Of a DNA stretch of 64,000 nucleotides, positions 25,785 through 60,938 are shown piece after piece. The stretch is taken from the NCBI GenBank assembly GCA_951406725.2, contig OX597839.1, forward strand, positions 2,356,001 to 2,420,000, given 5' to 3'. This DNA comes from Octopus vulgaris (Eukaryota). Below the pieces are notes generated by a model. It was not told the DNA's origin, searched no databases, and was given only the letters and a program-made list of their open reading frames with translations. Within the stretch, counting starts at the first letter, position 1. Each line of letters opens with the position of its first letter. The position numbers were made by a program, and so were the translations under genes.

Positions 25785-25828
<44 letters not shown>

Positions 25829-26400: not shown

Positions 26401-26445
<45 letters not shown>

Positions 26446-35384: not shown

Positions 35385-35719
35385 TCATGAAAATGAACAC
35401 GGAGTCTGAATTTTAGAGGTAGATGATGATGATGATGATGTTGATGATGTAGATGATGTTGCCGTCGACGTCGATGCCGGAGGCGTGATTATTTCAGCCA
35501 TTTGTGGGTCTGTGCATTTTCCCAGAATCATCTGTAGCATCAGGATTTCGTGCTGTCGCTCCTCCTGGCGACGTTTGTCCTCGAGCTCGGATTCCAGCTT
35601 TATGCGTTTCTCCTCCTGCTCGAAGAAAGCGTTCTGCAGTTCCAGCTGTTTGTCCATGAACGTCTCGATCATCTGCGACAGAGTCTGCTCCATGGCAGTA
35701 GGCTTCCTTTTCTGTTTAC
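35385..35719 (-). CDS. Coding exon 4 (terminal): coiled coil and Ser/Thr tail
   Basis: Acceptor ctctacag after a polypyrimidine tract; reads (G)KQKRKPTAMEQTLSQMIETFMDKQLELQNAFFEQEEKRIKLESELEDKRRQEERQHE...; stop at 35385. Confidence 0.88.
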
Positions 35720-37260
35720 CTGTAGAGTAAAAAAGGAAAAAAAAAAAAAAAGAAGAAAAAAACTATTAGAAATTTATAGGTGTGGGAGGGTAGTTAAGAG
35801 GTTTGCTTCCCAACCACATGGACTCTGGTTCAGTTCCACAGCACAAGTCTCTTCTACTGTAGCCCCAGACCACCTGAAGCCTTGTAAGAGGATTTGGTAT
35901 GCGAAAACTAAAGGAAGCCCATAACACACACACACGCACATATAAAAGCGAACTTTAGATTAGTTAAAATGTATTTGTGAGATATTTCAACTTCTTAAGG
36001 CAAATTCACCGCAGTTACCATAGAGAAAAATTTGTTGTGGTAAAAGGTGTAAAATACACCATATATGCTCAGTCTTTCCACCTGTTGGATTTCCAGATAC
36101 AGCATTTCTAAGCTCTCTAGATGTTATCAATAAGAACTACTGAAGAGAGATAACTCTGGACAGATTTAAAGATGTAACTTTAACTAAAACACAGTCAACA
36201 ACATTGACTGTGTTGTGCTACTAGACTGCCAGGTCAGGAGAAATTTATCAGTATCCGTGCAAAGCAGTACTTGGTGATGTTACTGCTACCTTGCTAGATC
36301 AGATTGGAGCCTGGTGCAGTCTCTTGGCTTGCCAGTCTGTCAAACCATCCACCCCCTGCCAGCATGGAAGGCGGACGATTCCAGCCCAACAGACCCATTA
36401 AAGCTTCCAGCCACAGAGATGAGGTCATTGCCACTTGTCTTTGAGGTAGCCTGTAGAAGGGTATCATAAAAGTGGTCCTTCTGATCATTTGGTAACCCCG
36501 CATATGTGGCATAGGAGGAGATAATAGTAGCTGTGCTATTCTGAAGCTCCTCTCCATCTTACCTCTTGTATGCAGCATACATCAACCCATCTCCTTTCAA
36601 GCATCCCTACAATCTCACTAGACCTACCTTTCATTGTGCCAACTCTGAAAACTGGGAAGGGAATGTGGGGTGAGGTTTGGGGAGGAGGGATGTTATTCAG
36701 CGCCTGAAAAGAAGAGGGTTGTTGTGGTGGTGTCCGTTTGTTAGGCAAGCTTCATCTGTTCTCTCTCTCGACCTGACAACATTCAAGCATTCAGGCATGT
36801 TAAGATTGTTGCCCTTACTGGAGGTAGGAGCCAGTGTTAACAGCATTGTAAGCATAAGCATTATGGTCGTTGACTGATGTAGATTCAAGCAGTGTAGCAA
36901 AATATGGATATTCCAATGTTAGGTTAGGAGGATGTCAGCTGAAACTGGTTGCATTTCTTATATACATATATATAGGGGGAGCAATGAATAAACTCTCATC
37001 TAAATTACGCAATAATGAAAATAACACTGACGTCTCATTTTGACAGATATTACTCTTTTACTTGTTTCAGTCATTTGACTGCGGCCATGCTGGAGCACCG
37101 CCTCTAGTTGAGCAAATCGACCCCGGGACTTATTCTTTGTAAGCCCAGTACTTATTCTATCGGTCTCTTTTTGCCGAACCGCTAAGTCACGGGGACGTAA
37201 ACACACCAGCATCGGTTGTCAAGCAATGCTAGGGGGACAAACACAGACACACAAACATAT

Positions 37261-37309
<49 letters not shown>

Positions 37310-40300
37310 TACGACAGGCTTCTTACAGTTTCCGTCTACCAAATCCACTTACAAGGCATTGGTCGGCCCGGGGCTATAGCAGAAGACACTTGCCCAAGAT
37401 GCCACGCAGTGGGACTGAACCCGGAACCATGTGGTTGGTTGCGCCTATATTTATCAAAATTACATAAAAATATCTTGAAATACTAAAGAGTAAATTTACT
37501 CAATAAAATTGCCATTGGTTTCAACCACGGCCTACAGATGACTTTGGAATCTCCTGCAGCTCTTCTGAATTGTCTCCTAAGTTGGTGAGTGCAGCCAAAA
37601 TCCTTGCCTTCAGTTCATCTTTGCTGCTACAAGGGAGCTTTTTTGGTTTCTCGTGCAACTGTACCTCACACGTGATAATCAAGGGGGGTTGGAGTCTGGG
37701 GAGTTAGCTCACCAGATGTTAGGGACCAGGTGACAGCTGGAGTTTGGACAGCCCCCACCCCTGCTAGCCAGCACCACGTCAAATCATCTAACCTATGCCA
37801 GCATGGAGAGCAGATGTTAAATGATGATGATGATGATGATGTTAAATGATGATGATGATGATGATGATGGTTGTATACCATAAGCATAGCATATATCTAT
37901 AGAAGTAAGAATCATTTGATGAATTTACCTGACAACTGTCCGATAGGTGATGTCTGCAACTGGTTGGTATGTAAAGGTGTAGGGGATCGACTACTGGGGG
38001 AGGTCTCCTCAATAGCAATGCAACTCATGGCCAAATCCTCAGCATCTGCATCAGAAATACACTTCACTTCTGGCACTAAAAATTTATTAATTAATAATTA
38101 ATTCATTCATTCGTTTACAAATGAATTCATTAATTAATAACGACACAATTTAATGACATTAAACAAAGGGAACTACTTACAAAATAAGGTGGCTGTTGTT
38201 GAGCTGTTGTTTAGCCACAGGTCAGCCTTCACCAAGCAGACTTATGACCAAAGGTGTTCCAGCTAATACCACCCCATCTCTGCATTTTTTCAGACACAGT
38301 TTATCTAGGACTATATTACTTAATGTGTTCTCTCTTGATCTGATGTTGTTTAGCCCCAGGTCAGTTTTGATCTAGCAGACCTATGATCAAAAGTGTTCCA
38401 GCTGCAACCATCCCATCACTTTATTTTTTCAGGCATAGTGTATCTAGGCCTATATTACTGAAAGTATTCTCCCTTGACCTGATGCTGTTGTTTAGCCCCA
38501 GGTCAGCCTTGACTGAGCAAACCTATGATCAAGAGAGAGAAAAGGCTGCTGGGATTGATATGGCCTGTTACCCAGTTTCCATGGTACATAAGTGACCAAA
38601 ATCCCAACACTGCCCCTAAATGGGAAGCCAGTCTATTACAGGGTTATTCTCATTTACAGCTGAGTGGATTAGAGCAATGTGAAATGAGGTTTTGCTCAAG
38701 AACACAACATATCTGGCAAGTTCACCATCATCAATCAACCAAAGGGTAAGTTCAATGTCATCAATTCACCATCTTTTTTTTTTCCCAATAAAATAATTTT
38801 TAACTATTTATAATGAGATATATAATGGATATATTTTCTCATTAATGTTTCCTCACAATGAACTTTCCCTGCTGTGAATTGATGGCAGTGTACTTACCTG
38901 AAATCAGAACACAGCGTGTAACCCATACTGGGAACTGAAACCACCACTTTGCAATCATGAGTTGAGTACAACACCCTGACCACTATGCCATGTAACTTCA
39001 CTAAATAAAAACTCCCCATCTTGAAAAACAGCTGGAATTGTCTTTGATCTTAAGTTTAGAGGATCTTGCATTTGTACTTATTTGTACTTGTGGTGGCATT
39101 CAACAGGGGTGGATTGAGCCAGTTCTACCCAACAAATTCACTACATCCCTCACAGATGCTGACCATATCCAATAGACAGTCTTAAAACTCCAGCAGGCAA
39201 AGTAATCCTTCTGCCTGTGGCCCAAGAAGGCAGGATGTAAATTTGACAAATGCTCCAATGGGGAAAGTACGCACATCAGATAATGTGGATGCCATAATCA
39301 TAGTCGTCATTCGTTGTTTAGGAGTAGAGGTCATGTTCAGATCACAGCTGGACTAGACTACAACAACAAGCAATAAAAAAAATAAAAAACAAACAAAAGA
39401 AGTAAATTTACCATTGTCATTGTCATTAAGGAGATGTTCGTCTGCTGAATACTGCTCAATTTTAACCTCAGTAGACATGGGGTTATCTAATAACATCATA
39501 GGTATAGACGGGGGACGATTGCCCAAAACTTCATCCAGCTTATCAAAGAAGCGACACGTTTTCCGACCACTTTTACTGAAAAATAAAACGGAAAAGAAAA
39601 TTTTAAGCTTTAAAATAGTTTTAAAAAATTAATTAACATAGATGCAAGTGTGGCTGTGTTAAGAAGCTTGCTTCCCAACCACATGGCTCTGGATTCAGTT
39701 CCATGACCATGGGATTGCACCTAGAAAGTTCCCCTCTGAGGCACAAGTCTGGGTAAGGTTGTTTATGGAAGACCAGCAGTCACCCATGCTTACCAGCCTC
39801 CTCTCTCCACGCCATTATATGTACACAGAGTAATGGGTAAAGACCCCCTTCAGTCCCGAATGGCCATGGGATTGCACCCTAGAAATTTCCCCACCGAGGC
39901 ACAAGTTTGTTTATGGAAGACCAACAGTAACCCATGATTACCGGCCACCAATATTATCCAAGGGACAGGCAAAGACCAATACAGTTTGACACGAGTGATG
40001 TCATAACTAATTTCTACAGATGAGTGAACTGGAGCAATGTGAAATAAAGTGTCTTGCTCAAGATCACAACACACAGCCTGGTCCAGGAATCAAACTCACT
40101 ACCTCATGATTGTGAGCCCAGCACTCTAACCACTGAGCCGTATGCTTTCAGTTGGAAGTATTTTGCCAAAATTCAGAGAAAAAGCACTTGTCATTGGTCA
40201 ATCATAAAAGGGTGATGTTCTTACATGATAATGCAAGACCACATATTGCTCAAGTTACTCAGGAGAAGATCAGAGTACTAAATATGGAAGTTTTGCCTCA

Positions 40301-42973
40301 TCTCCCTTACTCTCCTAACCTTGCTCCATCTGACTGTTATCTTTTCAGATCATTGCAACATTATTTAAAGGGAAAGCTGTTTATCAACTGTGAAGAAGTT
40401 TCAAAACCTGAAAAATTTTACACCTGCGGGGTCGGCAATTTGTCAAAAAGATGGGATTATGTTATCAATAATGAGGGAAAACACAGGTCGTCGTCAGCTT
40501 ACAAACTTTCCGACTTAATAACAATTGGCGTGCCAGCAACCGACACCAATAATAAATGCTCCATGTGAAATCTAATGGGTTTAATTTCTTAGAAATTAAC
40601 CCATCTATGGATGACGTCAGCTAACAAGCAACATCAACCAAGCTCCAATCTACAATAAATTTTTATGCAAGTTTTGCAACTGTTTCTTACACTACATTGT
40701 GTATTTCTTGTATTTGTATTCTTTGGTACTTTTCTATGAACAAATAACACTGTTGTAGTTATAATACAGACTATTGTGCGTGGCTTTTACCTGAGAATGT
40801 ACCTTAAGAATGTAAAAATATAAAACAAAGCTATAGGCCGACTTATGACCAGTCAGTCGGAACCAAATGTGGTTGTAAGTTGATGACGACCTATATCTTG
40901 ATTAAATTCAAGGATGGGCAAAAGTAGGTATACAGTTGCTTATGAGTGGAATATTCTTTTCATTTCCCTTTTTTAGGATAAGAATTCCATGATTCTTGAG
41001 CAACTGTATACCTATTTTTGCCCGTCTCTGTATATCAAGACCAAAGAACCATTTGTTCTTTCACCAACCTAAAAGTAAAAGGGGTTTTTTTCCATAGACA
41101 CAAGGCAATAAATTTGCAGGGCTTCAGATTTAGGGAAGAGGGGAGAGTTGATTACATCAACCCAACACTCCCCATGTACTTTATTTTATCAAACCCCAAA
41201 AGAGGAAAGGCAAAGTTAACCTTGACAAGATTTGAATTCAGAATGTGATGACCAGTAACAAATGCTGTAGGAGACTTCTCCAATATTTTAACAATTCTGC
41301 AGGTCACTACCTTTATAATAATGGTTTAAATTTTTGGCACAGGGCCAGTAGTTTTTGAGGGGAGGGGAAAGTCGATTACATCATTCCCAGTACTTGACAG
41401 GTACTTTATTTTACCAATGCCTGAAAGGATGAAAGGCAAAGTCGACCTCAGCAGAATTTGAACTCAGAACGTAAAGACAGGTGAAATGCTACCAAGCATT
41501 TTGTCTGGCATGCGAACGATTCTGCCAAATCACAGCCTCCACTGTCCTCAAAATAATAATAATAATCCTTTCTACTCTAGGTACAAAGCCTGAAATTTTA
41601 GGGGTTGGGGCTAGTCCATTAGATTGACCCCTGTATGCAACTAGTACTTATTTTGTTCACCAGAAAGGGTTAAAAGCAAAGTCGACCTTGGTGGAATTCA
41701 ACTTTGCCTGCCATCCTTAATAATAATAATTGCTTCTAATAAACTCGTTTGGCACTGATTCATTTATCACTGATTCAGAATAACACGATGTGCTAATTAT
41801 GAACCATATTACATTTATCACAAATTGATCGGGGATAACATAGGCCAAGATTCTGCTTGGACTGCTTGACCAAAAGATAAAGGACACATTGGACAACACA
41901 GTGGCATAGTTTTGCATATATCTCTATAAAGGGGTGGAATATTCACGGTTGGAACGCCTTTGATCATCGCTCCACTCGACCCGGGATGGAGGCCACTGAG
42001 CCAAAACAAATGCGTGTGTGTTTGGCAATCACCAGCACATGAAAAACAAAGTGAATAAATAAAATTTTCAGTAAACTGCCGAGAACATCCAGTAAATCAG
42101 ATGGCAAAATTTTGGGCGATCTTTCGTCTCTAGTAGACCTTTCCGTCGATTTCCGCAAGCCCATATGTAAAAAAAAAAATTTTTTTTACGGAAATCGACG
42201 GAAAGGTCTACTAGAGACGAAAGATTGCCAAATTTTGACAGTTACGAGATTTATAAAGAAATATTGGCATTGTGTGTGTGTGTGTGTGTGTTTGTGGTTT
42301 CAAATGTTGGCACACAAGACCTGCAATTTGGGGCGAAGGTGATTAATCGATTACATCGACCCCAATGCTGAACAGGTATTATCTTATCCACCCCGAAAGA
42401 AACAAAGGCAAAGTCGACCTTCTTTGAAAATTATAATTAAACATAATTAAGTACCTTCGTTCTTAAAATACGGTGTTGTTAATAAAAGGCGGTGTGTAAT
42501 GAAAAATTGTTCCGACCCAATATTTAGAACATCACAAAAAAAATATTAGGTTTAAATATTTAGAAAAAAAAAGATAATTTTTAAACTGGTTAAAAAAGGA
42601 AAACATATTCGATTATATAATAAACATCAGCAATCATCACCGCTACCACAGTCTAATTAGCGAGTAATTAAAATCGTAATAGCAGCAAGAGTGGAGTGGA
42701 GGTGTTCGTGGTTGTATTGGATCTGAAATAGCTACATGCATACCTGTTATAATCGTAACCTCTTTTGTAAATCTTCTTGAGTGTCTTCATGCGCTCTTTC
42801 ACTTGGACCACGGATCTCTGGATGCCTCTCTCGGACAGCTTCAGTCGGATGTATTCGTATACATGCCAATTCCTAATGCTATTCTCCAAATCCGTCTGGA
42901 TCTCTTCGTTACCCCATATGTCTATAAGATTCAACGTTTCGTTATCCGACCAATTCACTCCGCGTTGAGTCAT
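35385..42973 (-). CDS. Myb/SANT-like (trihelix/MSANTD-type) DNA-binding protein with C-terminal coiled coil; 4 exons, 291 aa
   Basis: Exons 42973-42744 (230 nt), 39575-39412 (164), 38075-37929 (147) and 35719-35385 (335) sum to 876 nt in one frame. All introns are GT-AG with matching phases (2,1,1). Protein: NWSDNETLNLIDIWG...QVKERMKTLKKIYK...CRFFDKLDEVLG, then an acidic S/P linker, then an E/K/R/Q-rich coiled coil. Confidence 0.9.
36446..36655 (-). mobile_element. RTE-like LINE endonuclease N-terminal relic
   Basis: FRVGTMKGRSSEIVGMLERRWVDVCCIQEVRWRG contains the APE endonuclease QE motif. Part of it is duplicated at ~34260-34350. Confidence 0.75.
37500..37700 (-). mobile_element. Tc1-like transposase C-terminal relic
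   Basis: PLDYHV*G...SKDELKARI resembles the Tc1 NPLDY.VW motif and downstream region. Confidence 0.55.
37929..38075 (-). CDS. Coding exon 3: acidic Ser/Pro-rich linker
   Basis: Acceptor tttttag; reads (V)PEVKCISDADAEDLAMSCIAIEETSPSSRSPTP...GQLS; donor gtaaat; phase 1-1, 147 nt open. Confidence 0.8.
39412..39575 (-). CDS. Coding exon 2: end of the Myb/SANT-like domain
   Basis: Acceptor ttttcag; reads (S)KSGRKTCRFFDKLDEVLGNRPPSIP...DNDN; donor gtaaat (phase 1). Not in the supplied ORF track because it is a spliced exon. Confidence 0.9.
39780..40150 (-). mobile_element. SINE (family D)
   Basis: gagtgaactggagcaatgtgaaataaagtgtcttgc core plus a tRNA-like head. Also at 46370-46665 (-), 50740-50970 (-) and 50995-51200 (+). 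Confidence 0.7.
40165..40483 (+). mobile_element. mariner transposase relic (catalytic domain C-half)
   Basis: HDNARPH...HLPYSPNLAPSDCYLFRSLQHYL...KRWDYVINNEGK. Confidence 0.88.
40484..40893. mobile_element. Tigger/pogo-like MITE inserted at the end of the mariner relic
   Basis: TIRs caggtcgtcgtcagcttacaa / ttgtaagttgatgacgaccta. Confidence 0.65.
40909..41030. mobile_element. Tc1/mariner-type MITE
   Basis: TIRs gatgggcaaaagtaggtatacagttg / caactgtatacctatttttgcccgtc, followed by TA. Confidence 0.7.
42115..42229. mobile_element. 115-bp MITE with ~43-bp TIRs and 8-bp TSD (Merlin-like)
   Basis: ggcgatctttcgtctctagtagacctttccgtcgatttccg and its reverse complement; TSD aaattttg at 42107-42114 and 42230-42237. 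Confidence 0.8.
42744..42973 (-). CDS. Coding exon 1A: Myb/SANT-like domain helices
   Basis: ATG at 42973; 76 codons MTQRGVNWSD...YDYN plus AG, then donor gtatgc (phase 2). Confidence 0.9.
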
Positions 42974-43469
42974 GGTCGAAATTTCTAAATAACTTCCTTT
43001 TTAAATAAATATATATATATATATACACACACAGACAGATAGATATCGTTATATATATATAAACATAAAAATATTTTTTTAAATATCTTTAAATATATAT
43101 ATATAACTATATATAAATGCACTATTTTTTTCGTTCCTAATCGATTTATTTGATGCTATTGATTACTTAATACATTTTTGTTTTTTGTTTTCTTATTGCT
43201 TTCTTAATCAATTTCGCTATTTTATTTATTTTTTTTTTTTTTGTGTTCATAAAAGGCAATTAATTCTGTTTGGGGGTGGGGGGAAAAACAACACCAGTAA
43301 ACGGCCAAATGACACCTCAGTTTGCAAGAATATTTCTCTAATCAACTATCTGCTCCAAGACAAATTAATTGACGCTATATATATAGATATATATAGAGGT
43401 GTGAGCGTGTGTGTGTGCATGTATATATAATAATATTAATTAAAGGCAAAAGGAGGGAGAGAGAGAGAG

Positions 43470-43680
43470 GCATCCGCGAAAAAGCTCCCTGGTACGCGCA
43501 TGTGCACGACTGACCAGCTTGTGAAACGAACAAAATAACAAAAACAGAGAGAAAGAACAGCAGCATGCTGGGAGTTGCCACCTCAACACGAGGGGGGGTA
43601 GCCCTGCTACTACAGTAGAAGGAAGAAAGGCTATTATAGTAGACAAGTATATAGTAGCCCTGCTACTATGTAACAAACAG
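43470..43680. promoter_or_regulatory. Putative promoter upstream of exon 1A
   Basis: Locally CpG-richer, non-repeat sequence with E2F-like CGCGAAAA (43475), NRF1-like CGCGCATGTGCA (43495-43506) and ZNF143/Staf-like GCATGCTGGGAGTTG (43563-43577). Confidence 0.45.
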
Positions 43681-44774
43681 TAAGTGCCACTATCACACGC
43701 AACAGCTAAATAGAGTAGATACGCAGGATGTGATATTCCCCGAGTAGAGGGTGATTGCAAAGGCAAGGCGGAAAATTCTGGTGACAGGTTCCGATCGATT
43801 TAATCGGATCCTGGTCGCTTCAGTGGTAATACTTCATTTCTTGTTGTTTAGCCACAGGTCAAGTCTTTTCGAGCAGCCATATCACCATCACTATCACCAC
43901 CATCATCATCAGAGATATTCACAGCGTGACCAGCATTTTCTCCCCAACTCCACCCGTGGTACGAAGGAGACTACATTCTGTAAAATGTCTTTACCTGAAA
44001 TAAGGAGGTACAGAGGTACGGAAGATTTAGGTACTATTTCTAATAGTGCAAACGACCAAGTAATGGCCCATTTTATTGAAGATGGTGGTAAGGTGATTTT
44101 AAAAGTGGATCTTACGAAGGACGTGTCCCTTTCTTCATTTCCGTCTTTCTTTCCCTAGCAACCTTTTTAAATATGAAAATATGTGGATTCAGGAATTGCC
44201 ACGACGGTGAGAATTGATGCTTTCGACATCCCAAGGGTGGTTCTACGCATGACCAGAGAAGGAAGGAAACGACAAGCAACTCGCTTGCAGGCTCTGATTT
44301 GAATAAATGACATAACTTAACACTTTTTACTTAATTGCAATTCGCACCGGTGTGAAAAAACAACTTGATTAATTAATTAAGTATGCATGCATGCATACAC
44401 ACACACATGAATTTTTGTATACATACATACATACACACGCACACGTTACAAAAATAATCATGTGTATATATATATATATATACACATACATGCATACACA
44501 TACATATATACACACACATGCATACACATAGATCTACACACACACACACACGTTACAAAAATAATCATGTGTATATATATATATACACACACATGCATAC
44601 ACATACATATATACACACACATGCATACATACACATATACACACATGCATACACATAGATCTATATACACACACATATGCATATACATAGATCTATATAC
44701 ACACACATGCATATACATAGATCTATACACACTCAAACATACATATATATATATATATATACACACACTGACAC

Positions 44775-44832
<58 letters not shown>

Positions 44833-44854
44833 AGAGAGAGAGGCAAAGTGGCTG

Positions 44855-45232
44855 AGTTCCTTTTGAGCACTGGGACTCAAGGAAGCAAAGTAGCTGAGCT
44901 CCTTTTGAGTGTTGGGCCTCACGGAGGCAATGACCAGGACCTTTGGCATTTTGTCACGCTTGAGAAGAAGACCCATCAAGCCAAGCAAAATCGCAGTCAT
45001 GACAGATACCAGTGTCACACAAATCGGCACCTGTGCTGGTGGCACATAAACACACCCCAGTGTCACGCAAATGGCACCCATGCTGGTGACATGGAAGAGC
45101 AACCATTACACACTCAGTGGTTGGCATTAGGAAGGGCATCCAGCCGTAGAAAACCATGCCAAATCAGACTGGAGTCTGGTACAGCCTTCTAGCATGCCAG
45201 CTTGGACAACAGACGCTAAATGATGATGATGA
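44855..45232 (+). mobile_element. RTE-like LINE 3' end / RTE-tail element
   Basis: Similar to the 3' end of the RTE at 53017-53094; gagtggttggcattaggaagggcatccagccgtagaaa-like block; (ATG)n tail. Confidence 0.6.
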
Positions 45233-45722
45233 TTTACATATCCACATTCACATATACACAGATGTACACATACATGCACAAATACATTTATAGATACATA
45301 TTAATACATATATACATACATACAAATTTTCTGAGGAAAATCTTCACAGAGACTTCAAAATTTCAGGTAATTAGCTGTCAACATATAATGAACAGAGACT
45401 TTGAAGTCACTATCAAAGTTTTCCTTGTAAAACTTAACATGGTACTGTACATTAAGGAGTGATACATGACTTTCATGTTCAATTGTTTTCATATCATTGG
45501 GACTCCCTGAGGCCCAACGCTCAAAAGGAACTCAGCTACTTTGCCTATTGATATATATATATATATATAAATAAAGGTGTCTGAGTGTGTGTATATATAT
45601 GTCTGAGTGTGTATATACATATATATATAAAATATTATTAGAGACAAAACCACTATTTTGCAAAACAAACAAGGAAAGACTTAATCAATACATAAAATTT
45701 TAATAAATAGTCAAAAAAACCG

Positions 45723-45765
45723 CCACTACAATCGTTTCTTGTCTTGATCGACAATCTTCAGGTGG
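45723..45765 (-). ncRNA. Minimal type I hammerhead ribozyme (mirror copy)
   Basis: Reverse complement of 45826-45868 in the left arm of the palindrome. Confidence 0.85.
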
Positions 45766-45825
45766 ACTTCCAATAAGTCAGTTTCAAATTATGAAGTCAT
45801 AATTTGAAACTGACTTATTGGAAGT

Positions 45826-45868
45826 CCACCTGAAGATTGTCGATCAAGACAAGAAACGATTGTAGTGG
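45826..45868 (+). ncRNA. Minimal type I hammerhead ribozyme
   Basis: ccac-CTGAAGA-ttgtc(gatcaa)gacaa-GAAA-cgattg-TA-gtgg: full canonical core, 5-bp helix II, short near-palindromic helix III, GTA cleavage triplet. Confidence 0.85.
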
Positions 45869-46891
45869 CGGTTTTTTTGACTATTTATTAAAATTTTATG
45901 TATTGATTAAGTCTTTCCTTGTTTGTTTTGCAAAATAGTGGTTTTGTCTCTAATAATATTTTATAATATTTTACTATAAAATTGGATTTAATCCTAAATC
46001 TGATTTTTTTCCCTGTAAATTTGGATTTATTCCCTAATATTTATTATTATATATATATATATATATATTACGTGACCGACCAGACCATCAGATGTTGTTA
46101 CACATCGCTGGTCACAATGCGTTCGCATTGTTTTAGCCTTCGAATGACGCCACCCCGCTGGCTAAGCGAGCAGGCCAACAGAAGAAAGAGTGGTGAAAGA
46201 GTACAGCAGGGATCACCACCCCCTGCCGGAGCCTCGTGGAGCTTTTAGGTGTTTTCGCTCAATAAATACACACAACGCCCGGTCTGGGAATCGAAACCGC
46301 GATCATGCGACCGCTAGTCCGCTGCCCTAACCACTATATATGACTGAGTGTGTATATACAGATGATAAGGGTTCCAGTTGATCCGATCGATGGAACAGCA
46401 TGCTCGTCAAATTAACATGCAAGTGGCTGAGCACTCCACAGACATGTGTACCCTTAATGTAGTTTTAAGAGAGATTCAGCATGGCACAGAATGTGACAAA
46501 GTCAGCCCTTTGAAATACAGGTAGTACACATTTTTGCTAGCTGAGTGGACTGGAGCAATGTGGAATAAAGTGCCTTGCTCAAAGACACAATGCATCGCCA
46601 GGAATTGAACTCACAACCTCACAATCATGGGCCAAATACCCTAACCACTAAGCCACACACCTTCACTGTTTTCATATCACTCTTTTACTTGTTTCAGTCA
46701 TTTGACTGCAGCCATGCTGGAGCACCGCCTTTAATCGAGCAACTCGACCCCGGAACTTATTCTTTTGTAAGCCCAGTACTTATTCTATCGGTCTCTTTTG
46801 CCGAACCGCTAAGTAACGGGGACATAAACACACCAGCATCGGTTGTCAAGCAATGCTAGGGGGACAAACAGACACACAAACACACACATGC

Positions 46892-46924
<33 letters not shown>

Positions 46925-47054
46925 TACGACAGGCTTCTTTTCAGTTTCCGTCTACCAAATCCACTCACAAGGCTTTGGTCGGCCCGAGGCTATAGTAGAA
47001 GAAACTTGACCAAGGTGTCACGCAGTGGGACTGAACCCGGAACCATATATACGT

Positions 47055-47520: not shown

Positions 47521-47524
47521 TCAT

Positions 47525-49019: not shown

Positions 49020-50019
49020 TATTTTCTGTTGAAAATTTTGAAGACTGCGGAATAAATGATAATCAGATAGGACAATGTCTGGCAAATATGGTGGGTGAGG
49101 CCTTTTTTCCCATTCAAACTGTTCCAGCCTTTGGAATGTCATCCTCACTGTATGTGACCGAGCATTATCCTGATGGAAGAACACCATTTTGTCTCAAAAC
49201 CAAAGATGGTCGTTTTTCTTCTAGTGCTGACTTAAGCCGCTCAAGCCACTCACAGATCTCCTTTGTTATCGTTGGGTTTGGGTTTAAATGTTCAAAGTGG
49301 ACTAAACCTTTCATATCCCACCAAAAAAATAACAACATCTTACGGGGGTGAAGACCTTCTTTAGCCTGGGGTACCAGTGTTTTCCTACCCACTGTTTCAG
49401 CGCTTGACATTTTTATAGAGAACCCATTTCTCATCACCAATGACTATTCAGTCCAAAAATGGTCCATTCGTGAGACATGACAGCAAAGAAGAGCACACAT
49501 TCACTCTTTGCATGCGATTAAACTCAGAAAATTTGCAGACTTTTCTGATGGCATGCAGGTGTCAATGAAAGGTTGAATGACCAAATCCAAGCTTCTCTGC
49601 TAGCTCCTCAACAGTTACAATGGGATTTTGTTCCACCAGGGTTTGCAGGACATCCTCATTGAGCTCTACAGATCTTCTAGGATGAGGCTTATCTTCTAGG
49701 CTGTAGTTTCCCACTCAGAATTTCTGGAACCACCATTGCCTGATCCTCATATACTGCATGAATATTCCTCACACTTTGCATTGCGTTGTTACCTTTATTG
49801 AATGTACAAAGCAAAATATTCTGAATATGCTCCTTTGTCACTTCCATTATAACTTTGAAAATATAACTGTTAAAATCGAACTGCACTCTTCAAAACTTGC
49901 ACTAAGAATAAGGACAAGATAAAATTACTACCTGCTTTTATAGCAAGTTGATGCAGGTAGTTTATGCAATTTTAGTTCATGCAATTGTAAAAAATGTAGT
50001 ATTTATGGGATGACCTAAT
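49020..50019 (-). mobile_element. Degenerate mariner element
   Basis: MEVTKEHIQNILL..FNKG (HTH), LHPRKMLLFFWWD, FHQDNARSH and PPYLPDIVLSDYHLFRSLQN spread across frameshifts. Confidence 0.88.
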
Positions 50020-51847
50020 ACATATGCATGTATACTCTTTTACTCTTTTACTTGTTTCAGTCATTTGACTGTGGCCATGCTGGAGCACCGCCTTTAGTCG
50101 AGCAAATCGACCCTAGGACTTATTCTTTGTAAGCCCAGTACTTATTCTATTGGTCTCTTTTGCCGAACCGCTAAGTGACGGGGACGTAAACACACCAGCA
50201 TCGGTTGTCAAGCGATGCTAGAGGGACAAACACAGACACACAAACATATACACACACATACATATATATAAATATATATACGACAGGCTTCTTTCAGTTT
50301 CCGTCTACCAAATCCACTCACAAGGCTTTGGTCGGCCCGAGGCTATAGCAGAAGACACTTGCCCAAGATGCCACGCAGTGGGACTGAACCCGGAACCATG
50401 TGGTTGGTTAGCAGGCTACTTACCACACAGCCACTCTGCTATGAGACGATGGTAGTTTCTTTTAGTCGAATAAAGATGATAGCTCTGTAATTTCTGGCTG
50501 AACAATCTGCACAAATGATTTGTTTACAGTGATCAAATGTATGTGCTGCACATCAGCTCACTCCCTCCATCAAATCAATGTTGCCTTACTGAGTGCACAG
50601 TGAACCACATGCCAAATGTCAAAGTGATCGCAGAGCAGTATCAGATGAAGCGTTTTGCGCAGGAACACAATGCACCACCGAGACAATGTTTGAAGCGACA
50701 ATCTCACAGTCATGAGTGCAAGACCAGCAGTCACTCATGTACACCAGTCTCCTCACTCCACGCCACCGATGTTGTCCAAGGGAATGGCAAAGGGGCCGAT
50801 ACAGCTTGGCACTACTGACATCACAGCTCATTTCTACAGCTGAGTGAACTGGAGCAATGTGAAATAAAGTGTCTTGCACAAGAACACAGCACACAGCCCG
50901 GTCCAGGAATTGAACTCACTACCTCATGATTGTGAATCCAATGCCCTAACCACTGAGCCATGTGCCTTCACATATAAACATTCTTTTATTTGTCACAGAC
51001 CAGGCTGTGTTGTGTTCTTGAGCAAGACACTCTGTTTCGTGTTGTTCCACTTCACTCAGCTGTAGTAATGAGTTGCGATGTCACTGGTGCCAAGCTGTAT
51101 TGACCTTTGCCTTTCCTTTGGATATCTTGCCTGGGCTCCTCAGAATGGAACTTTCTAGGTGCAATTCCATGGCTATTCATGACCGAAGGGGGTCTTTACC
51201 CCTTATCCTATATACGTGTGTGTGTGAGTGTGTGCAGGCCCAGATATGGCTGTGTGTTTAAGAAATTTGCTTTGGAATTACACAGATTGGGATTTGCTCC
51301 CACCCCATGGATACCAATCAGCTGGTGTCCTTTACTATAGCCAGAAGCTGACAAATAACTTGTGAGCAAAATCTGGAAGAGGTCCATCATATATGTTTAT
51401 AAGAGGATATTTATATGTTTGTGTGTGTGTCTCTCTCATGGAGAGTGTAATCACCAAAGCTTTGCCATTCATGCTGTGTCATTCACAGGCAGTCCTTTGC
51501 AAAAGCGTATTATCTGAGTCACTTGATATGTCTTGACATGAATGTGCTGATTATAAACAAAGTGTCACTATTCACACAAACAGTGGAGTTTGTTTACAGT
51601 TCTCCACAGAAGCATATCCAGCTTGTTTAGACTGGCAGAATTGTTACCTTCTTTGGAAACAGGTGAAGGTCAATGACAGGAAGGGCACCCAACCGAGGAA
51701 GAAACTGCCTCAATGAAGGCTCATCTGATCCATGGAAATATGGAAAAGTAGACATTAATAACATGATAGTGGTTATGATAAAGCTATATAGACACATATA
51801 TGTGTATACATACACACACACACACATGTGTATACATACACACACAC

Positions 51848-51879
<32 letters not shown>

Positions 51880-52148
51880 ATATATATACAGTGGAGAAGG
51901 CTAGCCACTGGATTTGGTTAAAAAGAGACGATGAGTGATGGCTAGAAGGATATTGAGTTTAACTTCATAACCAGCTGATCTAGCAAGCGGGGCCTCATAT
52001 CAGTGAGGGGGGGGCGGTGCGCAGTGACACCGTCGAGAAGTAGGCCCCGAAACGGCGCGCATTCTCTCCTGATGACCCCATACACTTGCTGGCTTCCGGT
52101 ATACAGAGCTTTTGACTGGTAGCACTTGCATGTGCAAGTTGTTTGCAA

Positions 52149-52185
<37 letters not shown>

Positions 52186-52189
<4 letters not shown>

Positions 52190-53360
52190 AGTTTCAAGTG
52201 TGGAAACAAGGATTAGAATCGAAGGGCCTTAGAGTCAACGTAGCTAAAACCAAAGTCCTAATAAGTAGTAAGGCAGGCAAACCACAAATCCCTTCAGGTA
52301 GATGGCCCTGCTCGATCTGTAGTAGAGGTGTAGGTAGAAACTCTGTAAGATGTACCCAGTGTAAGCTATGGACACATAAGAGGTGCAGTAATATCAAAGG
52401 AAGGCTAACTGGGAAGATAACTTTTGTATGTGGCAGATGCTCAGGTGCAATAAACACTGAAAATGCATAGAAAACAACTTCAGCCACATTCCAGGAAGGG
52501 AAACTAGAAGTAGTTGATAGCTTCCGTTACCTAGGTCACCAAGTCAGTAGAGGGGGAGGGTGCTCTGAAAGTGTAGCAGCTAGAATAAGAATAGCTTGGG
52601 CAAAGTTCAGAGAGCTCTTACCCCTGCTGGTGACAAAAGGCCTCTCGCTCAGAGTAAAAGGTAGACTGTATGACGCATGTGTACAAACAGCCATGCTACA
52701 TGGCAGTGAAACATGGGCTGTGACTGCTGAGGGCATGCGTAAGCTCACAAGGAATGAAGCCAGTATGCTCCGATGGATGTGTAATGTCAGTGTGCATACT
52801 CGACAGAGTGTTAGTACCTTGAGAGAAAAGTTGGACCTAAGAAGCATCAGATGTGGTGTGCAAGAGAGATGACTGTGCTGGTATGGTCATGTAGCAAGAA
52901 TGGATGAGGATAGCTGTGTGAAAAAGTGCCACACCCTAGCGGCTGAGGGAATCTGTGGAAGAGGCAGACCCAAGAAGACCTGGGATGAAGTGGTGAAGCA
53001 TGACCTTCAAACTTTAGGCCTCACCAACGAAATGACTAGTGACCAAGACCTTTGGAAATATGCTGTGCTTGAGAAAAACCGGCAAGCCAAATGAGACCAT
53101 AACCTCGTGGCCTATGCCAGGGGCATAACCAGCCCACTTGTGTGTACCTTTTCCTTTATTGGACACTAAACTCAGTTTGCGAAGACCTGTTGAGGCAAGT
53201 GAAATTGAAATCAAAATGAAATTCGATGACGGGCACCATACGAGCGTGATTGTTGACAGAGCGGCTAACCGGCTTCTGTGCCAGTGGCACATAAAAGGCA
53301 CCATTCGAGCGGGATCGTTACCAGCATCGCCTTAATGGCACCTGTGCCATTGGCATGTGT
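52186..53360 (+). mobile_element. 5'-truncated RTE-like LINE (RT C-terminus with Cys-rich insert)
   Basis: WKQGLESKGLRVNVAKTKV...CSIC...CTQCKLWTHKRC...FRYLG...AMLHGSETW...RGRPKKTW; internal stops present. Confidence 0.88.
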
Positions 53361-54865
53361 AAAAACCCCAGGACTTTTTTTTAAGACTAATACTTATCCT
53401 GTCAATCTCTTTTGCCACACCACAATTCCTAATAATATTTAATTATAAATTTAACATCAAATAGCTAGTGAGGTCCACCCAGGTAAAATAGGAATCAAAG
53501 GGGTCCTTAGGGAAAAAATAGTTGGGAAGCACTGTACTAGATTATTTATTCAGCCTGGGAGCTATTCACAATACTAATGAGTGTATTCATCATCATCATC
53601 ATCTTCATTGAACGTCCGTTTTCCATGCTAGTATGGGTTGGATGATTCGACCGGGGTCTGGGAAGCCAGAAGGCTGCACCAGGATCCAGCCTGATCTGGC
53701 AGTGTTTCTACAGCTGGATGCCCTTCCTAACGCCAACCACTCCGAGAGTGTAGTGGGTGCTTTTTATGTGCCACGCGAGGCTGGTCCTTATATTTCAGAG
53801 ACAGCAAATCATATCTAGGTATGTAGCTGGCTGTGAGTACACTTCATCATCAAGGCCCAAGAGGGCCAAAATGCATTTCATGTTCTTGCTAGCCACTTCT
53901 GAGATATTTTTTCATCTCCCCCCGATATATACAGGGTGTTCAGGTTAAATTTTACAATTGTTAATGTCTTTTTATTTTTTCAGAAAAAGCAAAATGTATT
54001 GGTGAACAATCAATGGTATTGTGGAGGAGCGATGGTATTTCAAGGCGGCAAGCTGGCAGAAACGTTAGCGCGCCGGGCGAAATGCGTAGCCGTATTCGTC
54101 TGCCGCTACGTTCTGAGTTCAAATTCCGCGGAGGTCGATAAATTAAGTACCAGTTACGCACTGGGGTCGATATAATCGACTTAATACCTATGTCTGTTCT
54201 TGTTTGTCCCCTCCATGTTTAGCCCCTTGTGGGTAATAAAGAAATAGGTATTGTGGAGGAGCATAAAGATTATAGCTGTAGTTAAGAAAAAGTTGGCCAA
54301 CATGGAGGAGTGGAAGCTACACTCTTTACTCTTACTCTTTTACTTGTTTCAGTCATTTGACTGTGGCCATGCTGGAGCACCGCCTTTAGCCGAGCAAATC
54401 AACCCCAGGACTTATTCTTTGTAAGCCTAGAACTTATTCTATCGGTCTCTTTCGCTGAACTGCTAAGTTATGGGGACGTAAACACACCAGCATCGGTTGT
54501 CAAGCGATGGTGGGTGGGGACAAACAGACACACACATGCATAGAAATATATATACATATATACGATGGACTGCTTTCAGTTTCCATCTATCAAATCCACT
54601 CACAAGGCTTTGGTCGACCCGAGGCTATAGTAGAAGACACTTGCCCAAGGTGCCACGCAGTGGGACTGAAACCGGAACCATGTGGTCAGTAAACAAGTGA
54701 CTTACCACACAGCCACTCGTGCTATGTGAATATTGGAAACGATTTACCTATATCGTGATGATTCATGATGGGAAGCAAAATGTAGACATGATAATGACTG
54801 CTGCTTAATGCTTTGTGAAGACTGTAAAAGCTGTAAGACGTGACACGGACATCATGTAGACTAAG

Positions 54866-55108
54866 TGATGGTTTTTGGGTGTGTTTCCAGTGAGGGCAAC
54901 AGCATGCCATCCCACATCTTTGTAAAGGGCCTCAGGATCAATTCAGACAGCTATGTGAAGCTGCTGGAGACTGTGGTTAACCCTTGGCTGGAGAGGATTG
55001 CTGCTGGAAGGCCATATGTGAGGCAGAAGGATTTGGCATCTTGCTATATCTCCAGAAAGAGTCAGAAGTGGTTGTCGGAGAATTTCTGTGACTCCAGCAG
55101 CCCCAGTT
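54866..55108 (+). mobile_element. Tc1-like transposase fragment
   Basis: VMVFGCVSSEG...INSDSYVKLLETVVNPWL...SQKWLSENF. Confidence 0.75.
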
Positions 55109-56089
55109 AGTTCTGAAAATGGCTGGACCATTTCATCACGGAACACCAAAAGTGTTGAGCCCTCTTCAGATTCTGTATCATGTCCACAGCCTCTATGTAG
55201 GCTGGAGTATCAAGCAAGGTATTTCTCAATGTATCTATTGAGGTCTTCCAGTCATGATCATGAGCTCTCAGTCACTTGTTGTGTGTGTGTGTGTGTGTGT
55301 GTAGACCAGTGTAAACCAGTTTGTTGAGTTACATCCCTTTACAGCAAATGCATAAAAGAACAATTCGACAAACAGACTAAGACATAAGCAAAGTGCAAGA
55401 ATGAAAAATAGTGGGGGGGGGGTCAATCAACGTGATTGACTAGAACACACTTGGAAGTAGCATGCCCCAGCATGGTCACAGTCCAGGAGTGAGATCAGTA
55501 AAAAGAAACAAAAAGGAATATTGATTTTTAACGGAGAAAGACATTTCAAGGGGGAAGAGGATATGGTGGTCAATGGATTTTTTTTTATTGTTGTTGCCTG
55601 TGTGTAGATGTAGTATGGCCAAATGATTAAGAAGTTTACTTTGCAATCAAAAGGCAACAGGTTCAATCTCACAGTGTGGCATCTTGGCACAAGAGTATTT
55701 TTTCATAGACTCAGGTTGACCCAAGCCTTGTAAACAAAATAGGGTAGAAGGAAATTGTGTGGAAGCTCATCAGGTGAGCTGTACATGTAAGCTGAGGGAC
55801 AAATGTGTGTGGAGTACTCAGCCACAAATACACAAATATGTTTGGGGACATAAAAAATAAACGGACATATTAGCTGTACCCCAGTTTTAGTGCATATAAT
55901 ATAGACTTTGTCTTTCATCCTTTCAGGGATGGTAAAATAAGTAGCAGTTGAACACTGGAGTCAATGTAATTGATTTAATTACTCCTGTGTATGAGTATAA
56001 AAAAAACTGCACCCCTATGCAAGACCATGTTGAACCAGTGTGACAGAGTAGGCTCATCACACCAGTATGATCTCAAATCCATGGCCCCC

Positions 56090-56236
56090 ACACCCAGCAG
56101 CAATCCTCTCCAGCCAAGGTTTAACTACAGTCTCCATTGGCTTCACATAGCTATCTGAATTGATCTTGAGGCCCTTTTCAAAGATGTGGGATGGCATGAT
56201 GTTGCCCTCACTGGAAACACACCCGAAAACCATGGT
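56090..56236 (-). mobile_element. Tc1-like transposase fragment (inverted relative to 54866)
   Basis: MVFGCVSSEGNIMPSHIFEKGLKINSDSYVKPMETVVKPWLERIAAG. Confidence 0.75.
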
Positions 56237-58509
56237 TGGGTGGAGAGAACATGTGGAGAGCCTTGTACAGTAGTGGACTGAACATGAGCAACCCCCCAAA
56301 AAAACTGCATCTCTCTGCCAAGCCATGTTGAGCCAGTATGGCAGAGTAGGCTCATCAAACCAGTTTGATCTCCAGCTCAAACTCACAGCCCCCACATCAG
56401 ACTCTAGTTGGGTGGAGAAAACATGCTGAGGCCTTTGTCCTACAGTGGACTAAACATAGGCAATCCAATAGAGATCCACCTTCACATATAGAGTGTAGGG
56501 TGACATTTTTTGAGATATAAAAAAAAAAAGAAAAAGTGTGTCTGATATGCAATCAAATATGGAAATTTAATGAGCAAGAAGTTCCAGTTGAGTAAACTGA
56601 AAAGTCACGACATGAAATCATGACCAAGATCCATTTTTATTGTTGTTTGACCCACTAGCCTTTAAACCAGCCATGTTCAGCCCAAATATTTTCCCTGTTT
56701 TATGTTCAAAATGGTCTGATCTGGCCTTTCACACCTATTCTGCAATGTTATTCTATAAAGAAACAATCACATCATCAAACTGTACCAGTACGTTGAGGGA
56801 ACAAGTGATTACTTTGACCCCCAATGTTCAACTGGTACTTATTTTACTGACCCCAAAAGGATGAAAGGCAAAGTCGACCTTAGTGGAATTTGAACTCAGA
56901 ATGTAAGACTGGATAAAATACCAATTTCTTTACTGCCCACAAGGGGCTAAACACAGAGAGGACAAACAAGAACAGACAAATGGATTAAGTCGATTATATC
57001 GACCCCAGTGCGTAACTGGTACTTATTTAATCAACCCCAAAAGGATGAAAGGCAAAGTTGACCTCGGCGGAATTTGAACTCAGAACGTAGCGGCAGACGA
57101 AATACCACTAAGCATTTTGCCTGGCATGCTAACAAATCTGCCAACTTGCCACTGTTTATAATAATAATAATAATAAAGGTTTCATATTTTGGAGAGAGTG
57201 GCTAAGTTGATTACATCAACCCCAGTGTTTCACTGGTACTTAATTTATCGATCACAAAAGGATGAAAGGCAAAGTTGACCTCAATGGAAACTGAATTCAG
57301 AATGTTAACACAGATGAAATGCCATTAAGCATTTTGCCCAGGTGTGATAACAATTCTGCCAGCTCCCTGCTTTCAACATGAGGAAGTATTACCTATTGCT
57401 TTACTACCCACAAGGGCTACACACAGAGAGGACAAACAAGGACAGACAAACGGATCAAGTCGTTTATATCGACTCCAGTATGTAACTGCTACTCATTTAA
57501 TCGACCCCGAAAGGATGAAAGGCAAAGTTAACCTCGGTGGAATTTGAACTCAGAACGTAGCGGCAGATGAAATACTGCTAAGCATTTCCCCCGGCGTGCT
57601 AACGTTTCTGCCAGATCGCCGCCTTGCTCAGACAAAAGAAGGGTATCCAGCTTTAGAAAATCTGCCTCAACAAATTCCATTTATCACCCTACTCTCCACC
57701 CACCTTGCAATCATGGAAAAGTGGACATAAAAACAATGCTGATTTACTAATTAGGCGCAAGCATAGCTGTGCAGTAAGAAGCTTGCTTCCCAACTACATG
57801 GTTCTGGGTTCAGTCCCAGTGTGTGGCACCGTAGACAAGGGTCTTCTACTATAGCCTCAGGCCAACCAAAGCCTTGTGAGTGGATTTGATAGATGGAAAC
57901 CGAAAGAAGCCTATTATTTGTGTGTGTGTGTGCATACATATATCTGTGCGTATTTGTGTTTGACCCTCACCACCACTTGACAACCAGTGTTAGTGTGTTT
58001 ACATCTCAATAACTTAGTGGATCGGCAAAGGAGACTGATAGAATAAGTGCTCAGCTTAAAAACCAACAAAAAAAAATTGTATCATTGATTGTCATCATTC
58101 AACATCCGTTTTCCATGCTGACAAAGAGAGGACTGTACCAAGCTCTGTCTACTTAGGCATAATTTCTACATCTAGATGCCCTTCCTAATACTAACCACTT
58201 TACAGCGTGTACTGGGTGCTTTTTATGTGGTACCAACACCAGCAAGGGTTACCAAATAAGCAGCAAGAGAAAGACACCCCTGTCAACCAGATAGGGAAGT
58301 AGTATTAAGTGAGGTGGCTTTATGCAGGTTGACAAGTGGTTAAAACATAATAGATGGATAGAGATAGGTGTTTTGATGTAGAGGAGACACATGGCTGGCA
58401 ATATAATTGCTTCTAATTTAGACATAAGCCCAGCAATTTTGAAGGTAGGTGCTTAGTTCATACCACTGATCCCCAGTATATGACTGCTACTTTACCGTGA
58501 AAGGATGCT

Positions 58510-58775
58510 GCTGCTTCATGCTCTTGCTTGATGAGGCTGGGGTCATCCCATGTTAGTGGTCCCAGAGACATCAACATGCATAGAGATGACCAGGTCCACC
58601 ATTGCTGGTTGTCCCATGCCAGCTCCTCTGCATCCTCCAAGGTGATGTCAAGCCTCTGCAGATCTTCCCTGGTCACATGCAGCCATCTGGTGTGGGGCCT
58701 GCCATGAGGCCTCTCCCAGCCCGCAGCTGCTGCATTGAATGAGAGTAAAGCCCTGGTAGGATGATCTAGCGAGGA
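58510..58775 (-). mobile_element. Old RTE-like LINE 3' relic
   Basis: GWERPHGRPHTRWLHVTREDLQRL resembles the RTE R.RGRP..RW C-terminal motif. Confidence 0.6.
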
Positions 58776-60711
58776 GACAGAGGATATGTCCGTACAAGCG
58801 CATGCAATGGATGAACTATGAGGTGGGAGGCTGCAGGATAATGCATACATGCACGCAGTTCTTTGTTGAAAATGTGGTCGGAAAGAACTTAGAATATAGA
58901 AAACCACAAAGACTACAAGGCATTTTCTCCTACATTCTAATAATTCTGCTAAGCCATCTTTTTTAATAATTTCAAGTTTAGGCACGAGACCAGCAATTTT
59001 GAGGGGAAGGTGTTTAGTCTACCAGATCCACTCACAAGGCTTTGCTCCGCCTGAGGCTATAGTAGAAGACACTTGCTCAAGGTGACACGCAGTGGGACTG
59101 AACACGGAACCGTATGGTTGGGAAGCAAGCTTCTTACCACACAGCCACGCCTGCGTCAATTACCTAAATAAAAGGCAAATCATACAGGGGAAGGAACAGT
59201 TATACTGTTCATAATACTTGGCTGTTTTTCAAAGCCGCTTAATGGTAGAATCATCAGCACTCCGGACAAAGTGCTCAGCGGTATTTCGTCCGTTTTTACG
59301 TTCAAGTTCCGCCGAGGTCGAGTTTGCCTTTCATCAGTTCGAGGTCTATAAAATAAGCACCAGTTGAGCACTGTGGTCGATGTAACTGACTTACCCCCTC
59401 CCCCGAAATTGCTGGCCTTGTGCCAAAATTTAAAACTAATATTTGACTATTTTTTACCGAACAAGGAAGAAAGGCAAAACTGACCTCGACGGGACTTGAA
59501 CTATAAAGAAATTGAATAAATACCGCAAGATATTTTGCCAAACGCTTTAAATATTTATCAAGCCATTACCCTTAATCTTCAACATAAGCACTGCAGTAGA
59601 AATTTGAAGAGTACGTCGACCCAAGTACTTGACTGGTCCTGTATTTTATCGATTCCAGACGAATGAAAGACAAAGCTGACCACGTCGGGATTTGAAGTGA
59701 GATCACAAAAGGCCGGAAGAAATACTGCAAGGCATTTTGTCCGACGTTTCAACGATTCTGCCAATCAAACAAATATTTAAATGTCGTAGTATTTTAACTA
59801 TAACCTACGTTAAAACGGCAAGCAATGGTTGGTCGAGAGTTTTTGATAATGAAAAAACAATTAGTAAATTAATAACAACGCTATTAATAATTAGTTGGCG
59901 AGTAGAAATGAAAAATTTTTTGTGTATGTGCGTAAATGTGTGAATGCGTATGTGTGTGTCTCCAACCACTCCAAAACAGGGGGAAATAACTCTCATTTAA
60001 AAACCGGATATTTCTCAATTTGTTTTTGAAAAAAAACATAATTGTTTTTAAATTTACCACCAAACACAGTACAATTATATAACTGTTAAAATTAGAATCA
60101 ATCAATTAGTATACAAACTATATATATATATATATTTAGATGATTAGAAAAGTAAATAATGAAATGCTATAACAGTAAATATTTAAGAGGAAACAACAGT
60201 GACCAAGCACCGGTTAAGCTCACCACGTATTTACATGATAGAGTGTAAAATTTTCTCAAATATATATATACACACATCTAATATTTATCATTGATAGTAA
60301 TAAATCGATTTGTCCTGGTCGGTTCTTGACAAGCCATAAAAAACCATTATTTTATTTCAAGAGTTTTAATAACATTTGCAGGCTTCTGATGTAAGAGTAA
60401 CCACAAGCTTATAAAGGGGGAGGTGCCTGAGGTTCTTCTCAGTTCCTAAAGCAAATATAAACGTTGTTTCCTTAAGCAATATTACTTCCGATCTTTCACT
60501 AAACATTACGATTGCATTTAATGTTAACCTAAAAACAAAATCTGATAGATATGCTGAACGGGAAAGAGAGAAAATATATAAGTATTTCGTTACTTTGGAA
60601 TGTTTTTAATTTCCAACAGCAAGGGCTTTTTTTATGTGGACAAATAAGATAATCGAGCATAGATAGTTTCAAAACAGCAACAATAATGGTTTTATAAAAC
60701 ATGCCTCATAC

Positions 60712-60938
60712 CTCTCGATATCGATATATTTTTTATAAGTCTTCTTCAAAGTTCTCATCCGTTCCTTAACCTGAGGGACTGTCCTTTGAATACCCCTTTC
60801 CAATAACTTCTGGCGTATAAGTTCATAAATATGTCTATTCCTACAGCTTTCGAGTCCCTCTTGGATTTCCTCTTCGCCCCAAACATTAATGAGTTCAAAT
60901 GTCTCGTTGTCGGTCCAATTTTGGCCACGTTCGGTCAT
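60712..60938 (-). CDS. Second Myb/SANT-like first exon (1B): paralogue or alternative first exon
   Basis: MTERGQNWTDNETFELINVWGEEEIQ...QVKERMRTLKKTYKKYIDIE plus AG|gtatga. About 49 of 76 positions identical to exon 1A by hand alignment; same intron position and phase. Confidence 0.85.

Follow-up and report, generated by a model that had tools for sequence, protein, structure and literature searches.

Drosophila BEAF-32 is described as a single gene from which presumed alternative promoters give rise to two proteins, BEAF-32A and BEAF-32B, that differ in their N-terminal ~80 DNA-binding residues (PMC5021357). According to the same account, the ~200 residues common to both forms, which comprise a middle region and, at the C-terminus, a helical region, mediate self-association, and the A and B proteins bind different sequences (PMC5021357). 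Here we describe a gene of comparable layout in Octopus vulgaris, located on a 64,000-nucleotide stretch of contig OX597839.1 (assembly GCA_951406725.2, positions 2,356,001 to 2,420,000; termed the window, whose own numbering is used throughout). This gene possesses a pair of Myb/SANT-like (PF13837) first coding exons, 1A and 1B, both on the minus strand, which feed a common set of exons 2-4. We consider the observation itself, a duplicated first coding exon providing two alternative front ends, to be confirmed and real.

Comparison with described systems

The octopus gene resembles BEAF-32 in having alternative exons for an N-terminal domain, with 75-83 variable and ~205-215 shared residues, and judged by this likeness Drosophila BEAF-32A/B is the closest known system. 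The two nevertheless differ in several respects. The fly gene uses BED zinc fingers and BESS, whereas the full-length octopus forms yield PF13837 alone in Pfam, and because the domains differ (trihelix versus BED plus BESS) we regard the common design as convergent and the octopus gene as no homologue of BEAF. In octopus the variable exon encodes roughly three quarters of the domain rather than all of it, and a third, domain-less first exon is annotated in this gene. Distinct DNA sites and self-association have been shown for BEAF but are only predicted for the octopus gene.

The first-pass annotation of the locus drew analogies with clustered protocadherins, mod(mdg4) and lola, which overstate the scale of a system with two copies only, to which BEAF-32A/B is closer. 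In mod(mdg4) and lola it is the zinc-finger end, at the C-terminus, that varies over many exons, whereas the variable part of the octopus gene is N-terminal. Clustered protocadherins, and the chelicerate 5'-cassette Dscam genes as presented in PMC4835542, likewise join variable exons onto constant ones; the protocadherins do so by promoter choice, but with many variable exons as opposed to two and a stub in octopus.

In domain content the gene is similar to MSANTD1-4 and the Harbinger-derived Myb-like genes. MSANTD1, 3 and 4 are reported to contain a single Myb-like trihelix domain within 275-345 residues encoded by three or four exons (PMC9392472, PMC9710019); the octopus gene likewise has a single trihelix domain, with PF13837 above cut-off, and unnamed relatives share its arrangement of domain, linker and C-terminal helix. 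The word 'alternative' is absent from the main text of PMC9392472. Descent of the octopus gene from a Harbinger protein is suggested by family resemblance rather than traced. The Harbinger transposase (DDE_Tnp_4, PF13359) has no match on the contig that carries the window (C26) and 12 matches elsewhere in the genome; we rejected an active Harbinger transposon, there being no transposase on C26 and exons 2 and 4 being single-copy. A literature search, from which supplements were excluded and outside which most subscription papers fell, returned nothing on the locus, its accessions or such a design in this family; these transcripts may appear in supplementary isoform tables, for instance in Data file S1 of PMC9699675.

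Organisation of the gene

The coding part of exon 1A, the proximal copy of the domain exon (42744..42973, minus strand), was defined from the sequence, the PF13837 profile and database isoforms P0155 and P0154. Exon 1B, the distal first exon (60712..61023, minus strand), is defined by contigs, the same profile and isoforms P0156, P0157 and P0159; its 5' limit at 61023 is the outermost contig end and does not imply a mapped start. The coding span of 1B extends from an ATG at 60962 or 60938 to the donor at 60712 and encodes helices 1-3 of the domain. From ATG to donor, 1A measures 230 nucleotides (nt) and 1B 227 nt, and both end in phase 2, with 2 nt left over, at AG/GTATG. The two copies agree at 50 of 75 aligned residues (68% identity by tblastn) and share 140 of 225 bases, which upholds the earlier reading of two similar Myb/SANT-like exons, each with an ATG and the same phase-2 donor. 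An in-frame upstream ATG at 60962 (60962-60939, minus strand) lengthens 1B by 8 residues, and P0010, an unnamed protein with two changes in the domain, carries the same 8-residue N-terminal extension.

Exon 2, common to the forms (39412..39575, minus strand; contigs, isoforms and model), encodes the final helix of the domain (residues 87-94 in the 1A form), after which a disordered linker begins. The linker continues in the common exon 3 (37929..38075, minus strand), which was placed by comparing database isoforms with the window exons; an alternative acceptor at 38045 gives 10 linker residues fewer, and both versions are annotated for 1A-type and 1B-type starts. The coding part of the common exon 4 (35385..35719, minus strand; isoforms and model) encodes a single predicted, coiled-coil-like helix of 59 residues and then a Ser/Thr-rich tail up to the stop at 35385. 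The intron of the 1B transcript (39576..60711, minus strand; 21,136 nt, GT-AG), evident from both contigs and isoforms, encloses 1A together with a short third first exon, 1C. The coding part of 1C (44116..44138, minus strand) is represented by a single record, O. sinensis isoform X4 (P0158); it comprises 23 nt, seven codons plus 2 nt, with the donor TC/GTAAGA, and the resulting form lacks helices 1-3. The earlier boundaries of 1A and 1B stand; the exact limits of exons 2-4, the 38045 acceptor and the 60962 ATG are additions of the present analysis, and 1C had been overlooked.

Splice junctions in RNA contigs and database isoforms

Twenty-four sequencing runs were listed for the 1B stretch, of which 20 hold it; 14 of these 20 were guessed to be RNA and none is recorded as RNA. 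Contigs were compared over 59900-61050 in four runs, one from each of four studies, picked for holding 1B. In every case one contig spans 1B without differences, stops matching at 60712 and continues into exon 2, the letters past 60712 being the first 28-30 nt of an exon that lies 21 kilobases (kb) away. Since the 21,136-nt GT-AG intron is skipped, the contigs derive from spliced RNA, the run type itself being a tool's guess. The in-frame joining of 1B to exon 2 that had been read from the genomic sequence is therefore present in contigs of all four runs. A retrocopy origin of the junction is unlikely, as exon 2 has one genomic match and 1B significantly matches only itself and 1A.

Three of the four contigs extend 610-766 nt beyond the junction, roughly the length of exons 2-4, and the fourth ends 28 nt inside exon 2. 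The assembly word size is 31 letters; on this assumption the break fits, as a hint only, a second incoming path that shares the last AG. The 5' ends of the 1B contigs lie at 60955-61023 and none of the four runs has a 5' loose end, which is consistent with 1B being a first exon, although contigs cannot map starts. An acceptor immediately 5' of the 1B ATG was rejected, as the contigs run through the site.

When exon 2 was used as query, two proteins were found among four candidates, and their clusters hold six records: P0155 and P0154 are 1A forms, P0156, P0157 and P0159 are 1B forms and P0158 is the 1C form, so that the database isoforms have three first exons in all. Five of the six (P0155, P0156, P0157, P0158 and P0159) were compared with the window exons, and each agrees with them in every letter; for example P0158 (O. 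sinensis isoform X4, XP_036355806.1) is rebuilt exactly from window exons including 1C. The O. vulgaris model P0154 starts within 1A at an internal Met and joins exon 2. The sequence of P0155 is identical under O. bimaculoides XP_014773862.1 and under XP_029656966.1, which was assigned to O. sinensis via its UniRef name, and that of P0156 is identical under CAI9741149.1, XP_014773864.1 and XP_036355805.1. RefSeq names the locus LOC106871749 in O. bimaculoides and LOC115231013 in O. sinensis, and isoforms X1-X4 are already present in its automated annotation. Automated isoforms of the RefSeq type are usually backed by RNA alignments. Splice forms in the O. vulgaris genome paper are described as coming from PASA updates (10.1101/2023.05.16.540928). 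Word-based protein searches with 1A and with 1B were blank although octopus records exist, and such blanks are uninformative. Two alternative first coding exons on one constant set, as the first-pass annotation had envisaged, are thus documented, 1B by contigs and 1A by database isoforms.

The predicted DNA-binding domain

Alone, exon 1A covers positions 2-68 and exon 1B positions 2-70 of the 89 in PF13837, and coverage reaches 2-89 only when exon 2 is joined, in agreement with the claim that exon 2 is needed to complete the domain. The match scores 66 bits in the 1A form and 71 bits in the 1B form, above the Pfam cut-off of 27 bits; the 1C form gave no PF13837 match in the Pfam scan. Lacking helices 1-3, the 1C form, known from one record, is a candidate natural inhibitor. 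W8 and W20 are invariant across the 84 rows of the family alignment. Structure models of the 1A and 1B forms have the same helices, with a predicted local distance difference test (pLDDT) above 90, at residues ~10-20, 23-31, 36-48, 55-79 and 87-94, followed by a disordered linker, the 59-residue helix and a disordered tail. The closest solved structure, the best match by both sequence and fold, is the trihelix domain of Arabidopsis GT-1 (PDB 2JMW, 2EBI), at 27% identity and with weak E-values (sequence E 0.015; fold E 0.07, probability 1.0). We found no DNA-bound structure for the subfamily of the octopus gene.

Sequence-specific DNA binding by the domain is to be expected from its PF13837 family membership. 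The copies differ at five of the six residues at the end of helix 3 that lies within exon 1 and at five of 13 residues in helix 2. Exon 1A has a tryptophan, W36, where K or R stands in 53 of 81 relatives, and position 56, which also differs between the copies, aligns with T133 of GT-1, whose phosphomimetic change is PDB 2EBI. The likeliest reading of these residues is that the 1A and 1B domains would have related yet non-identical binding, identical binding being a serious rival. The exon-4 helix is retained in unnamed relatives; a two-copy complex prediction for residues 180-250 scored 0.01 with the alignment not used and counts neither way.

Copy number, divergence and age of the two exons

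Genome-wide searches with 1A or with 1B each returned two significant matches, namely 1A and 1B, the next-best being insignificant (E 2.2 and 0.42). Exon 2 and the exon-4 helix each have one significant match in the genome, hence both are single-copy. In a region comprising the window and 200 kb of upstream sequence, tblastn with each of the five exons found no further exon 2, 3 or 4, no third exon 1 copy was found by tblastn or with an exon 1 profile, and profile searches revealed no extra copies of exons 1, 2 and 4. On C26, PF13837 matches only 1A and 1B among 150 scored of 448 candidates, with many matches elsewhere. Because none of these searches found further copies, 1B lacks a private set of constant exons, and the locus is not an array. 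A downstream exon set specific to 1B was rejected, exons 2 and 4 being single-copy with none further in the window and 200 kb upstream. The impression that no second exon 2-4 set lies between 1A and 1B holds up in the tblastn and profile searches; the further variable exons anticipated beyond the 64 kb did not materialise, there being no third copy genome-wide or in the 200 kb upstream. None of three contrary outcomes named beforehand (a separate exon 2-4 set, absence of a 1B junction, or a 1B that is untranscribed and neutral) occurred.

The two exons are separated by 25 substitutions and one indel, with pN 0.21, dN 0.25 and saturated synonymous sites; of the 46 identical residues having synonymous options, 33 use different codons. 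They are sisters, with support of 99/91, in a tree of 84 rows and 85 columns in which many forks are open and whose relatives were gathered with 1B as query. The branch leading to 1A is longer (0.53 versus 0.21 for 1B), a comparison biased by the use of 1B as query. Records for O. bimaculoides and O. sinensis contain one and the same 1A protein; for 1B a single sequence is common to these two species and O. vulgaris. The O. bimaculoides split has been placed at ~34 million years ago (10.1101/2023.05.16.540928) or ~50 million years ago (PMC9699675). Because both exon proteins are identical across that split, the duplication predates it; at the protein level this comparison shows each copy intact since then, and neither appears to be decaying.

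A representative protein search gave one close match, the unnamed P0010, which is 97% identical to 1B, and no squid, cuttlefish or nautilus orthologue was identifiable in it. P0052 and P0057 are degenerate 1B-like fragments (65-68% identity over ~50 residues) with no counterpart in this genome; exon 1B may perhaps have been copied again in another species. An atlas search returned only generic PF13837 clusters.

Candidate promoter signals

The ZNF143/Staf-like core motif YTCCCANNATGC is present at two places in the window, one above 1A and one above 1B. The candidate site above 1B (61005..61016, minus strand) begins at 61016, 78 nt above the 1B ATG, and that above 1A (43563..43574, minus strand) begins at 43574, 600 nt above the 1A ATG. 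The expected count in the window is 0.16 and two of 100 shuffles reach two, a figure that flatters as the pattern was fixed after the sites had been seen. No other instance was found in 264 kb, counting the window and the 200 kb upstream of it. A second half-site pattern, ACTACNNNTCCCA, had no match near 1A or 1B. The earlier report of ZNF143/Staf-like motifs near both exons holds for the core, one each. CpG content rises from a regional median of 0.46 to 1.13-1.22 at ~42.0-43.5 kb and to 1.72-2.05 at ~61.5-62.5 kb. The paired motif and CpG content would fit duplication of the exon and promoter together, without showing it. The absence of a 5' loose end on 1B in all four runs, together with one motif above each exon, is consistent with separate promoters.

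Interpretation and alternative explanations

On balance we favour, as somewhat the more probable account, one Myb/SANT-like (trihelix) gene whose sister first exons, 1A and 1B, are joined to shared exons 2-4, probably from separate promoters, and whose products probably have overlapping but non-identical targets. An ancient tandem duplication would have copied the exon together with its promoter, and 1A, being a first exon, would be skipped by the upstream 1B transcript. Two predicted transcription regulators would result, alike in their tail but with different front ends. Their exon-4 helix may let subunits oligomerise, and mixing among the A, B and domain-less C forms would then be possible. 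A difference in binding would arise where helix 3 ends and where helix 2 begins, not in the helix-3 core. A broader version, in which a BEAF-32-type system evolved independently from a transposon-derived trihelix protein, with promoter choice swapping between two domains of different specificity, a domain-less inhibitor from a third promoter and complexes in which all three forms, joined by one shared coiled coil, recognise mixed sites, is doubtful.

Several observations weigh against the account that we favour. The 1A-to-exon 2 junction is likely, but comes from database isoforms and not from reads; the O. vulgaris records may derive from the same assembly as the window. Three of the four 1B contigs continue without a branch for 610-766 nt beyond the junction, and 1A must be absent or pruned there, and the CAG ending of the second path in the fourth contig fits 1A but equally an unspliced intron. 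The entire protein, including its disordered parts, is identical between species, so that identity of the exons alone overstates constraint on the domain, and the age of the duplication is bounded only as older than the O. bimaculoides split. Hydrophobic residues occupy at best 47% of the a/d positions in the exon-4 helix, a weak heptad pattern. Furthermore, the helix-3 core (55-70) differs at only three of 16 positions between 1A and 1B, one of them K to R, and with a core so nearly constant the DNA specificity of the two domains may be identical.

This last point leads to a tenable, if clearly less probable, alternative, in which the gene structure is the same but both domains bind the same DNA, the copies having been kept for a division of tissues or stages between promoters and the protein differences being neutral. 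In plant trihelix proteins it is helix 3 that docks on DNA (PMC6706580), and its near-constant core and the common predicted fold agree with such a scheme, which does not readily account for 25 substitutions and one indel fixed between copies that are each constant between species, or for the loss from 1A of a basic residue retained by the majority of relatives and the longer branch of 1A (with the query bias given above). It is improbable that a single promoter and a shared non-coding leader supply both forms, mutually exclusive splicing then selecting between 1A and 1B. A donor-like site at 60990 in the 5' region of 1B and, above 1A, an acceptor-like one at 43606 would permit this, and the 5' ends of 1A transcripts have not been seen; however, no run has a loose end at 60990 or at any other 5' position, one contig crosses 60990 to reach 61023, and a promoter-type motif and raised CpG content are found near 1A too. 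That 1A is scarcely used or decaying, being annotated merely because it adjoins exon 2, with 1B as the working exon, is highly improbable: the three unbranched contigs, the greater deviation of 1A from the family and the O. vulgaris model that begins at an internal Met of 1A point that way, but 1A retains an open frame, ATG and donor, and its protein is identical in O. bimaculoides, O. sinensis and the window. It is barely credible that a larger array of variable first exons, like that of the protocadherins, extends beyond 1A and 1B with only its end in view, since only the layout, with variable exons above constant ones, recalls such an array, whereas there are two significant matches genome-wide, two PF13837 matches among the candidates scored on C26, none in the 200 kb upstream by tblastn or profile and just three first exons among the database isoforms.

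Surrounding DNA

The 18 kb separating 1A and 1B contain, as judged by eye, repeats and short transposase-like and reverse-transcriptase-like fragments, which agrees with the earlier description of this interval as mostly relics of transposable elements. Within the 1B intron, broken transposase-like relics lie at 47500-49950 and are presumably pogo-like and mariner-like by their motifs, and a long, near-perfect inverted repeat at 45700-45870, also noted by eye, is probably a small non-autonomous element. The region 9000-26500, apparently a tandem satellite, is a succession of units of very high AT content that contain long TA microsatellites and have flanks that recur. Elsewhere in the genome there are three other strong, unsplit PF13837 domains (C6:316542, C3:1297515 and C20:11873947), and dozens of weak, equal-scoring PF13837 matches occur on many contigs in open frames of ~430-470 residues, probably representing one repeat family.

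Significance

To our knowledge, the swapping of a duplicated DNA-binding exon by alternative promoters is rare among known cases, BEAF-32 being the worked example. The octopus gene is no large generator of diversity, and the presence of its isoforms in automated annotation limits the surprise. It does offer a clean natural pair, with domains that are two-thirds identical, each constant across Octopus species, on one tail. The pair permits a direct test of single-exon versus whole-gene duplication in the diversification of regulators, and could reveal which residues determine specificity in the MSANTD/trihelix family, itself poorly characterised. If the favoured account is true, the locus would be a convergent, BEAF-32-like case in another domain family and phylum, in which one gene gives two regulators with possibly different targets, as in BEAF-32.

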